A DNA stretch of 64,000 bases from Escherichia phage RCIP0319. Where the stretch lies: the sequence record PV464738.1. One strand, written 5' to 3'. The notes beneath the pieces are model-generated. The model had not been told where the DNA came from, searched no databases, and worked only from the letters and a program-made list of their open reading frames with translations. The position numbers were made by a program, and so were the translations under genes. Positions 29,642-31,209 of the stretch are shown here, in pieces (position 1 is the first letter of the stretch; the number at the start of each line of letters is the position of its first letter).

Positions 29642-30619
29642 TTAAAAATACTCCATATCGGTAATATCACGGAAGCACTTATACAAGGCAGAGCGCGGCA
29701 CGTCAACGATGCCAAAGTTAAAGAATTTATATGTCAGATACTTGTTGCGATAATTCTCGCGATTCTCCCAAAGCATTTTTCGCTCTGCCATCGGCATTGA
29801 ACCAGCGGAGACGCGGAAAGGAATCATTTCACCTTTCTCATCAACATATTTTGGATTGACAACCACAAATGATCCAAGGTATCCTTTTGCGACTAAGCCT
29901 TCAGCCTCTTTCGAACGCTTAGTGCGACCCAGCTCATCAATGAATGCTTCGTTGTTGTTCTCCATCATCTCAACGAAGTCTATGATCAGTCCTTCTTCAT
30001 CGGTCCACGGCTTGTCCTTCCACACATCACGTGACTTTGGCGTCGCGCGGCCATGCTTGTATTTGCCCGTCCAAGATTTGCCATACAAGCCTTCATAGCC
30101 AAGCTGGTCTGCTTCGATTTGCATCGCCGCGTACTGTTCCATATTTTCGATGTTTCGATATTCGAGAGCGCGAAGGAATGGGCGTCGACCATGGTTGATG
30201 AGGTGCTGATTGACTTCAGCAACTCTAGCGCGATAGTTTGCATAACGCTTTTCAAAAGGTAAATCAGGGTCGCTGAAGTCATCAAACACCCACCATGTAA
30301 AGTTAGTGATTGCATCAGTGTTCATGCATGCAGTATAGGCCTGTTGCATGACGTTTTTGTCGTTCGGATTACCGTCAATTAGCTCTCCATCAAGTCCGTG
30401 AATCAATTCACCCAAGAATAGGAACTCTTTTTTTATTTGAATATTGCGCAGCGCCATGCCGGACGTGCCCATTGGTAAGTTGTCATACGCCATCGCGCGT
30501 ATGCCATCGACCTTGAAGGATAATCCGCAAGGCAGCGGCACATCTTCGCCGCGCTCGATGATTTGTTTACGCTGACAGCCTTTCATTGGTTTTAATGCTT
30601 TGATTTCTCCTGCCATCAC
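29642..30619 (-). CDS. ATP-dependent DNA (or RNA) ligase, nucleotidyltransferase superfamily
   Basis: 325 aa; motif I KVDGIR (KxDGxR), LDGELIDG (motif III-like) and EGLYGK (motif IV-like). Confidence 0.65.
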   Translation of the reverse strand: MMAGEIKALKPMKGCQRKQIIERGEDVPLPCGLSFKVDGIRAMAYDNLPMGTSGMALRNIQIKKEFLFLGELIHGLDGELIDGNPNDKNVMQQAYTACMNTDAITNFTWWVFDDFSDPDLPFEKRYANYRARVAEVNQHLINHGRRPFLRALEYRNIENMEQYAAMQIEADQLGYEGLYGKSWTGKYKHGRATPKSRDVWKDKPWTDEEGLIIDFVEMMENNNEAFIDELGRTKRSKEAEGLVAKGYLGSFVVVNPKYVDEKGEMIPFRVSAGSMPMAERKMLWENRENYRNKYLTYKFFNFGIVDVPRSALYKCFRDITDMEYF

Positions 30620-31209
30620 TCAAACTCCTTATTCATCACTTGTTCCAGCGCATAGGCATACGCCTGATCAGTCGATTTGATAAACGTTCCGTTGTACATC
30701 ACACCTTTACGGTCCTTGATGTCTTCATAGGCGGCTTGAGCGCAATCAGACAGTCGAAGTCCATAATCATGCGCTACGCCGGAAAGATAATCGACTGCGG
30801 CCATGATGGTGACATCAATATCCATGCTTTGATTTTTAGCGATGGCATCACCAAGCCGTCCGAGGGTCTTTGCCAAGCGGAGGATAAAGGAATGAGGGTG
30901 AGCGCCTTTGTCAGCGCAACCGCCGCCGTTGATGTCTTCGATTTTTGCACCGTTTTGCGCGGCAAGAATAGTCAACACAACAAGGCAATCGCCGATGTCG
31001 TCCTTGATTGCAGCTTGTAAATCACAGATGGCCTGCTCTGTATATCCGATTTCAGGGTCAAAGAACACAAGGTCATGTAATTGATCAACGTGGTCGGTCA
31101 ACTCCCCAAACTCGCTAATAAGCTTCGGGTATTGGTCCTTAAGGTCGCAGCCTTGGATGATGTTACGGTCAGAAGCCCACTGGCGAATGTTTGCATAAAT
31201 CTGGTTCAT
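30616..31209 (-). CDS. MazG-like nucleoside triphosphate pyrophosphohydrolase (putative)
   Basis: 197 aa; LISEFGELTDHV and IGDCLVVLTILA resemble the EExxE / D-containing helices of all-alpha NTP pyrophosphatases. Confidence 0.45.
   Translation of the reverse strand: MNQIYANIRQWASDRNIIQGCDLKDQYPKLISEFGELTDHVDQLHDLVFFDPEIGYTEQAICDLQAAIKDDIGDCLVVLTILAAQNGAKIEDINGGGCADKGAHPHSFILRLAKTLGRLGDAIAKNQSMDIDVTIMAAVDYLSGVAHDYGLRLSDCAQAAYEDIKDRKGVMYNGTFIKSTDQAYAYALEQVMNKEFE

Follow-up and report, generated by a model that had tools for sequence, protein, structure and literature searches.

A partly duplicated MazG-lineage protein encoded in the replication module of Escherichia phage RCIP0319, a candidate enzyme of nucleotide-pool sanitising

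In this work, we analysed a window of 64,000 nucleotides from Escherichia phage RCIP0319 (sequence record PV464738.1) and focused on one gene of its minus strand, which encodes a MazG-like protein of 197 residues, hereafter the target. Sequence, profile and predicted-fold evidence support the placement of this protein in the MazG lineage of the all-alpha nucleoside triphosphate (NTP) pyrophosphohydrolase superfamily. Taken as a whole, the data are best explained by a MazG-lineage pyrophosphohydrolase, partly duplicated, that would sanitise the deoxynucleoside triphosphate (dNTP) pool for the phage polymerase; we give this reading a probability of about 0.6. The ancestral type would be a single-domain phage MazG chain of about 110 residues, whose helix 2-3 hairpin would then have been duplicated. 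The first copy of the hairpin would retain the metal-binding carboxylates and form, with the basic C-terminal helix and beta-hairpin, one active site, and the second copy, its ligands lost, would serve as a structural and variable element. The resulting chain would have a topology like that of the protomer of the all-alpha 'dimeric' dUTPases and would act as a catalytically competent, divalent-metal-dependent hydrolase that converts NTP to nucleoside monophosphate (NMP) and pyrophosphate. Its likeliest substrates would be dUTP and/or other non-canonical dNTPs, its role would be pool sanitising for the phage's own polymerase, and the dUMP produced would also feed the phage ThyX.

Several searches carry the family assignment. 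Among the PHROGs, the target matches phrog_1992 ('MazG-like pyrophosphatase') over its full length (E 5e-63) and phrog_715 over its N-terminal half (E 5.9e-30). It scores 16.4 bits with Pfam MazG (PF03819), below the cut-off of 22, and short-form relatives with about 40% identity to it clear that cut-off (24.3 and 28 bits); membership in the MazG lineage therefore follows from transitive homology through the short forms and not from the curated cut-off. When 42 diverged homologues were scanned against Pfam (E <= 1), MazG was matched by 20 of them and MazG-like by five. A single-sequence phmmer search against the PDB returned nothing useful. A profile built from 42 full-length homologues, with hits considered to E <= 10, matched in its N-terminal half B. 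subtilis YpjD 2gta (E 3.6e-5), 5ie9 (1.2e-4) and the integron iMazG 2q73 (6e-3), and in its C-terminal half the S. solfataricus MazG SSO3215 (1vmg, E 1.7e-3). Moreover, the predicted model is an all-alpha helical bundle. The closest known systems are the short phage MazG proteins (PHROG 715; PF03819) and the type-I bacterial MazG proteins (YpjD 2gta, 5ie9, iMazG 2q73). Three PHROGs labelled 'DNA binding protein' (phrog_1994, phrog_14652 and phrog_14932) also match the C-terminal part of the target; they have in common with it the 'IKDRKG' module only, no independent evidence of DNA binding was found, and the label was set aside.

The homologues are of two kinds: long ones, full-length and of about 160-210 residues, and short ones of about 110 residues with a single MazG domain. 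Each of the short proteins aligns twice to the target at about 40% identity, residues 1-92 of the target pairing with 1-71 of the short form and residues 102-188 with 20-104. Likewise, a hidden Markov model (HMM) of 54 short forms matches the target at model positions 3-47 (residues 1-45) and 46-73 (residues 65-92), then again at positions 22-112 (residues 102-194). Because the short-form model matches twice, the helix 2-3 hairpin is duplicated: the target contains two copies of it, besides a 21-residue loop insertion at residues 45-65. The N-terminal copy matches the short forms almost letter for letter ('KLISEFGELTD', 'DDIGDCLVVLTILAAQ'), and in the second copy ('RLAKTLGRLGDAI...') the carboxylates are gone. 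Target and short forms also have in common 'SE.GEL' in helix 2, 'DDIGDCLVVL' in helix 3 and 'IKDRKG..G.FIK' at the C-terminus, where the predicted model places beta-strands at 169-172 and 175-178. They differ in length, the target reaching 197 residues against about 110 through the extra degenerate hairpin (99-150) and the loop insertion. The target chain probably unites in itself what takes two subunits in the short forms. We infer one catalytic site per chain, the degenerate hairpin being a putative structural stand-in for the second subunit of the short homodimeric forms. This architecture looks like an intermediate on an evolutionary route from homodimeric MazG to the single-chain dimeric dUTPases.

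Two acidic motifs, S32-E33-F34-G35-E36 in helix 2 and D70-D71-I72-G73-D74 in helix 3, provide the metal-ligand pattern of the superfamily (ExxE in helix 2 and (E/D)xx(x)D in helix 3). Conservation was counted over 181 full-length homologues. In the N-terminal half, E33, D70, D74 and K29 are present in all 181, E36, W11 and Q26 in 180 and R15 in 173, while D71 is found in just 95. Among the basic residues of the C-terminal part, R167 is kept in all the members, K165 in 178 and K178 in 177. The equivalent positions of the duplicated hairpin (115, 118, 131 and 134) are unconstrained across the same 181 sequences. Column information is high in helices 1-3 (2.2-2.6 bits) and in helix 4 with the beta-hairpin (2.4-3.2 bits), and falls to 0.6-1.3 bits across the central linker and the second hairpin. 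The initial annotation of this stretch had called the product an all-alpha MazG-like NTP pyrophosphohydrolase from its EExxE-like and D-containing helices. Both hold: the class call has the sequence, profile and predicted-fold support described above, and the helices are real, with E33, E36, D70 and D74 kept in 180-181 of the 181 homologues, the literal EExxE (glutamate at position 32) occurring in 36 of them.

The gene is under strong purifying selection. A nucleotide search identified the window as a near-complete genome of a Wifcevirus, a genus of E. coli and Shigella myoviruses that are distant kin of the Pseudomonas PB1-like Pbunavirus phages; over 29.0-33.5 kb, its identity is 97.7% to phage vB_EcoM-Ro157lw and 97.5% to WFH. 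Compared with its Bas101 orthologue (89.7% nucleotide and 97.0% amino-acid identity), the MazG-like gene shows 53 synonymous and 8 non-synonymous differences, which gives a ratio of non-synonymous to synonymous divergence (dN/dS) of 0.028. Given the invariant carboxylates and basic residues and this strong purifying selection, an active hydrolase that would convert NTP to NMP and pyrophosphate is favoured. The 197-residue open reading frame pointed out in the initial annotation is thus a genuine gene, of exact extent 30616-31209 (minus strand), with an ATG start, a ribosome-binding site, coupled start and stop codons and the low dN/dS given above. Its placement there in a 'replication block' is also correct, since it lies between an ATP-dependent DNA ligase gene and a spanin pair, with an SNF2 helicase and a DnaE-type polymerase further upstream.

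The proposal of a pool-sanitising role is favoured because the genes nearby are those of a ligase, an exonuclease and a polymerase, because loss of a canonical dNTP would harm the phages of the family, and because no conventional dUTPase was found. Indeed, an E. coli Dut probe, verified against the PDB, detected no conventional dUTPase in the window, Bas101, AB1 or SpSL1 (best E 0.11-1.4), so that a conventional trimeric enzyme elsewhere in the genome was discarded and a dUTPase-type function of the target would fill a gap. The window also encodes ThyX, the consumer of dUMP (Pfam Thy1, E 1.4e-29). Several points weigh against this reading. No biochemical data on any family member were found in the literature searched, which likewise held nothing functional on MazG in Pbunavirus or Wifcevirus. 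The single site per chain and the pseudo-dimer are suggested by the sequence and a monomer model. The sequence motifs of the dimeric dUTPases are absent (Pfam dUTPase_2 in 0 of 42 members; no aromatic sugar-sandwich residues after D74), and dUTP specificity is therefore only a guess. MazG-family specificities range over dCTP, dGTP, dUTP, oxidised dNTPs and ppGpp (DCTPP1, iMazG, cyanophage MazG, MazZ and mycobacterial MazG), and E. coli already provides a Dut.

The distribution of the family bears on its role. At E <= 1e-3 the family counts 5,465 representative clusters, of which 431 pass E <= 1e-30; the best 150 are nearly all long forms, and a tblastn search returned 637 phage records with hosts that include Pseudomonas, Acinetobacter, Streptococcus, Vibrio, Erwinia, Paenibacillus and Enterococcus. 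Replication/repair modules house long-form members in Acinetobacter phage AB1, where ThyX, HAD, polymerase and Dut are all lacking, in the temperate pneumococcal phage SpSL1 and in a T7-like Vibrio Maculvirus; the Pbunavirus LBL3 member occupies such a module too, and in a 42-kb podovirus contig a long form has an exonuclease gene and a DNA ligase gene as neighbours. The long-form family thus occurs in phages without ThyX, HAD, polymerase or modification genes (AB1, SpSL1, Maculvirus and the podovirus contig), and in the contexts examined it accompanies ThyX only in the PB1-like clade, where synteny is conserved. From this phyletic pattern, that is, presence in the replication modules of unrelated phages without ThyX, HAD, PurZ or dUTPase genes, it follows that the family is a generic replication-module accessory and not a component of a modification cassette. 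The MazG-ligase neighbourhood also recurs outside the PB1-like clade, as seen in that unrelated podovirus-like contig (k141_586719, ENA), where the stretch 98-2291 encodes, in order, a long-form member, a 3'-5' exonuclease, an ATP-dependent DNA ligase and a small protein matching the Acb2/Tad1-hairpin Pfam family. The MazG-like enzyme is an ordinary, widespread phage accessory, already annotated in public Wifcevirus and Pbunavirus records (the orthologue is labelled 'MazG-like pyrophosphatase' in NC_048194, NC_025441 and PQ850631). Knowing the substrate of the family would clarify how the dNTP pool is policed in many phages that lack a conventional dUTPase (more than 5,000 cluster representatives).

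Among the alternatives, the target might be a dedicated all-alpha 'dimeric'-type dUTPase, the phage's own Dut, which would deliver dUMP to ThyX and keep uracil out of the phage DNA; we consider this unlikely. The all-alpha dimeric dUTPases (Staphylococcus phage phiDI Dut 5myd, C. jejuni 1w2y, L. major 2yay) do count among the closest known systems, and the predicted model shows the whole-chain fold of a dimeric-Dut protomer. Staphylococcal phage dimeric Duts have conserved N- and C-terminal catalytic motifs around a variable 'motif VI' of 50-60 residues, and some of their alleles are also dCTPases or dITPases (PMC5608427). The conservation profile of the target, high at the ends and low in the centre, parallels this layout. 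The specific signs of the group are nevertheless missing: none of the 42 family members matches Pfam dUTPase_2, whereas T4 gp56 does; the sequence groups with MazG, YpjD and iMazG and not with Duts in the PDB profile search; and Foldseek comparison with PDB dUTPases was not significant (E 0.4-0.9). In dimeric Duts, a His(or Ala)-Phe couple in motif IV sandwiches the deoxyribose (PMC5608427). In the target, C75-L76-V77-V78 come after D74; none of these is aromatic, V77 and V78 do not vary, and no His/Ala-Phe couple is apparent, as judged from sequence only. The target is thus MazG by descent and dimeric-dUTPase-like in topology, and falls outside the dimeric dUTPase family. An anti-alarmone or anti-defence MazG, hydrolysing (p)ppGpp or another defence nucleotide and so blocking stringent-response-linked abortive infection, appears quite improbable, and so does ppGpp hydrolysis by the 197-residue protein as read from its sequence. 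A precedent exists in Atd1 of Pectobacterium phage PcCB7V, also a small phage-encoded all-alpha NTP pyrophosphatase, which is reported to hydrolyse ppGpp (Km about 50 uM) and not ribonucleoside triphosphates and to protect against TIR effectors (bioRxiv 10.1101/2022.06.09.495361). Wifcevirus phages are moreover insensitive to all the non-restriction-modification defences tested (PMC11990801), and the podovirus-like contig has an Acb2/Tad1-hairpin gene two genes away from its family member. Against this, in every context examined the gene belongs to replication/repair modules and not to early or anti-defence regions, the PDB profile search did not bring up E. coli MazG at E <= 10, and no family member was found in the PcCB7V genome (MW367417), which was scanned whole. 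That genome encodes two small all-alpha NTP pyrophosphatases, an 86-residue PRA-PH-like protein (2104-2364, minus strand), two genes from a nucleotidyltransferase (NTase), and a 120-residue Pfam MazG protein (32483-32845, minus strand). The preprint gives no accession for Atd1, and we took both as candidates. They were picked for lying close to NTase anti-defence loci, a setting unlike the replication module of the target. Direct hhalign comparison gave 0.15% and 1.4%, and Atd1 was rejected as a relative, both candidates having the generic ExxE helix alone in common with the target. The initial annotation had named a clear match to ppGpp-degrading MazG proteins as what would refute its preferred function; we looked for one, among these candidates and E. 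coli MazG, and did not find it.

That preferred function was a canonical-nucleotide exclusion partnership, in which the enzyme would destroy one canonical dNTP (as gp56) or make a monophosphate for a base modifier (as MazZ) and would act with the ThyX-like protein and the HAD hydrolase to place a modified base in the DNA. We find this very unlikely, and the exclusion-partner reading of the MazG-like gene is unsupported. Some observations do speak for it, namely the superfamily precedents gp56 and MazZ, a HAD phosphatase fused to the highly conserved domain PF19905 and coupled translationally to ThyX, and the divergence of the ThyX homologue, which scores 79.7 against the cut-off of 87.9 of the NCBIfam thyX equivalog TIGR02170 and of which the C-terminal half alone aligns, weakly, to the solved T. 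maritima ThyX (E 8.6e-4). The MazG-like gene, however, lies about 10 kb from the ThyX and HAD genes (41381-42211 and 40512-41384), in its own terminator-bracketed unit, and the family abounds in phages without ThyX, HAD or any modification genes. No specific similarity was found to gp56 (hhalign 0.45%) or MazZ (5.5%), the genome annotation lists neither PurZ nor DatZ, and the literature searched contained no report of a modified base in Wifcevirus or Pbunavirus. T4 gp56, a dCTPase/dUTPase and the textbook enzyme of canonical-nucleotide exclusion, acts alongside dCMP hydroxymethylase. It is a phage enzyme of the dNTP pool from the same superfamily, of similar size (171 residues) and of the all-alpha fold class, but its system includes that hydroxymethylase and no demonstrated base-modifying enzyme exists here; it also belongs to Pfam dUTPase_2 (25.4 bits) and the target family does not, so that it was rejected as a relative. 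S-2L MazZ, a diphosphohydrolase specific for (d)GTP and encoded in the diaminopurine Z-cluster, resembles the target in its MazG-HisE-type core, in its aligned metal ligands and in a C-terminal beta-hairpin preceded by a conserved arginine. The authors of the MazZ study noted this hairpin as unusual in the superfamily (PMC8342488). In the hhalign alignment, which at 5.5% is indicative only, E35/E38/E50/D53 of MazZ pair with E33/E36/D71/D74 of the target, I56 with V77, and the guanine-specifying D60 with I81. MazZ differs in being a single domain of 105 residues that forms tetramers and is always encoded between purZ and datZ, whereas the target has a spanin and a ligase as neighbours; it is missing from the PDB profile matches and was not retained as a relative. 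An adenylosuccinate-synthetase-like or HD phosphohydrolase gene is likewise not annotated in the Wifcevirus genome, and a MazZ-2 or Z-cluster context in the Vibrio relatives was dismissed, the Maculvirus context having neither PurZ nor DatZ. Canonical-nucleotide exclusion is thus probably not the purpose of the MazG-like enzyme. The fallback of the initial annotation, a housekeeping MazG, is the best-supported reading, with no support for exclusion and no clear ppGpp-degrading match.

The restriction phenotype of the genus deserves a separate mention. Wifcevirus phages show an unexplained resistance to restriction-modification, with EcoP1_I as the exception (PMC11990801). Site avoidance was rejected as its cause, since the window does contain the sites, with mild depletion only: EcoRI 15 (about 26 expected), EcoRV 5 (about 13.5), EcoKI 5 (about 10) and EcoP1I 71 (about 75). 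The presence of the EcoRI, EcoRV and EcoKI sites can also be counted in favour of a modified base. Given this resistance, the divergent ThyX and the HAD-PF19905 fusion, an undiscovered modification pathway in Wifcevirus is possible; no specific tie of the MazG-like gene to such a pathway was found. By analogy, one base of Wifcevirus DNA, thymine being the most plausible, might be replaced or hypermodified by means of the divergent ThyX-like gene, the HAD-PF19905 fusion and the adjacent short-chain dehydrogenase, VOC and Rossmann-like genes, with the MazG-like enzyme as a dTTP/dUTP triphosphatase, but we hold this to be highly improbable. The enzymes available for comparison, the dTTPase-dUTPase of hydroxymethyluracil Bacillus phages and T4 gp56, yield the monophosphate. 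If the base-modification reading were true, the resistance of the genus would be explained, and if the MazG-like enzyme served a DNA-modification pathway behind that resistance, it would matter far more; the present evidence points elsewhere. Phages of both Wifcevirus and Pbunavirus have therapeutic uses, actual or contemplated.

Other features of base composition were noted over the whole window. GATC is much rarer than expected, with 106 occurrences for about 262 under a first-order Markov model (standard deviation 15). BamHI sites (GGATCC) number 0 for about 9.8 expected, and those of HindIII and SspI are about two-fold over-represented.

Table 1. Features of the MazG-like gene, its product and its immediate neighbourhood (window coordinates; CDS, coding sequence; pLDDT, predicted local distance difference test)
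Feature	Position	Strand	Remarks
MazG-like NTP pyrophosphohydrolase CDS	30616..31209	-	ATG start, 197 aa + TGA stop; phrog_1992 E 5e-63; dN/dS 0.028
N-terminal catalytic half (predicted), residues 1-92	30934..31209	-	helices 1-3; W11, R15, Q26, K29; putative ligands E33, E36, D70/D71, D74; short-form HMM 3-73
Clade-specific loop insertion, residues 45-65, between helices 2 and 3	31015..31077	-	HMM insert states; absent in ~79% of 181; pLDDT ~74 (lower)
Degenerate helix 2'-3' hairpin, residues 99-150	30760..30915	-	ligands lost (T115, R118, I131, T134); short-form HMM 22-73; 1vmg aligns
C-terminal module, residues 153-197	30619..30753	-	helix 4, 'IKDRKG..NG.FIK' beta-hairpin (K165, R167, K178), terminal helix
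Ribosome-binding site AAGGA	31216..31220	-	6 nt 5' of MazG-like ATG; read from sequence
Rz-like i-spanin gene, upstream	31206..31724	-	phrog_1327 E 5e-26
o-spanin open reading frame embedded in Rz-like gene	31292-31570	-	o-spanin annotated in Bas101
ATP-dependent DNA ligase gene, downstream	29642..30616	-	phrog_114 E 5e-42; weak Pfam ligase domains
Terminator-like hairpin upstream of spanin-MazG-ligase unit	31743..31764	-	9 bp stem, 6 GC pairs, T-rich tail
Terminator-like hairpin closing the unit, downstream of ligase	29548..29569	-	

As read from the sequence, the spanin (Rz/Rz1), MazG and ligase genes form a translationally coupled unit bracketed by strong terminator-like hairpins (Table 1), and the MazG-like gene would be co-transcribed with the spanin and the DNA ligase. 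The stop codon of Rz shares ATGA (31206-31209) with the MazG-like start, the ATG of the ligase (30616-30614) overlaps the MazG-like stop (TGATG), and the ligase ribosome-binding site, AAGGAG at 30630-30625, lies within the 3' end of the MazG-like gene. In Pbunavirus LBL3, terminators are predicted at similar places, including a position matching the upstream hairpin. Beyond the spanin pair, Pam3 gp33/34-like genes precede the helicase and polymerase genes mentioned above. The Rz/Rz1-type spanin pair, coupled translationally to the MazG-like gene, sits among replication genes, about 2.5 kb from the endolysin (28027-28671), which is on the opposite, plus strand. Synonymous divergence (dS) from Bas101 also varies along this region: it is 0.62 for the MazG-like gene, whose protein is still 97% identical, and 0.28 for the adjacent ligase, 0.07 for Rz and 0.17 for the gp34-like gene. 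The high dS at the MazG-like locus suggests an older or recombined allele.

The region of the ThyX and HAD genes, all on the minus strand, yielded further observations. In the ThyX homologue, the region where RHRxxS...S.RY is expected reads, by eye, 'RTRTGAYQERTSRA'. The HAD protein, whose start overlaps the ThyX stop by 4 nucleotides, is a fusion of a PNKP-type HAD phosphatase (PF25109, residues 1-177) and a domain at residues ~180-290 with 65-75% identity to a very widespread stand-alone DUF family of about 95 residues, PF19905. The invariant polar residues of PF19905 are, in domain numbering, R41, N42, Y45, N48, H76, E79, K84, R87, H95, D97, S98, H100 and D101. This C-terminal domain was considered as a second NTP pyrophosphatase and rejected: it shows no link to the PDB or to the MazG-like family, and the best window match of gp56, which falls there, is not significant (E 0.15). 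Between the exonuclease and the HAD gene lie a short-chain dehydrogenase gene (39763-40446) and a gene for a weakly matching glyoxalase/VOC-like protein (39017-39568); in Pbunavirus LBL3, the interval from the exonuclease to the PNK-like phosphatase contains no gene. At 42738-43733, a protein of 331 residues has an N-terminal GGGLAGL dinucleotide-binding-like motif, no Pfam match and full-length membership of phrog_4828, a family of unknown function (E 2e-149); LBL3 gp63, a hypothetical protein of 333 residues, occupies the corresponding position and is like it in length and position alone. Finally, the 281-residue protein encoded at 43866-44711 is mostly of highly charged, Lys/Ala/Glu-rich low complexity ('...KKAEREAAKAAKEIEKAKAKEEAKRLKAEQ...'), followed by a short globular C-terminus.

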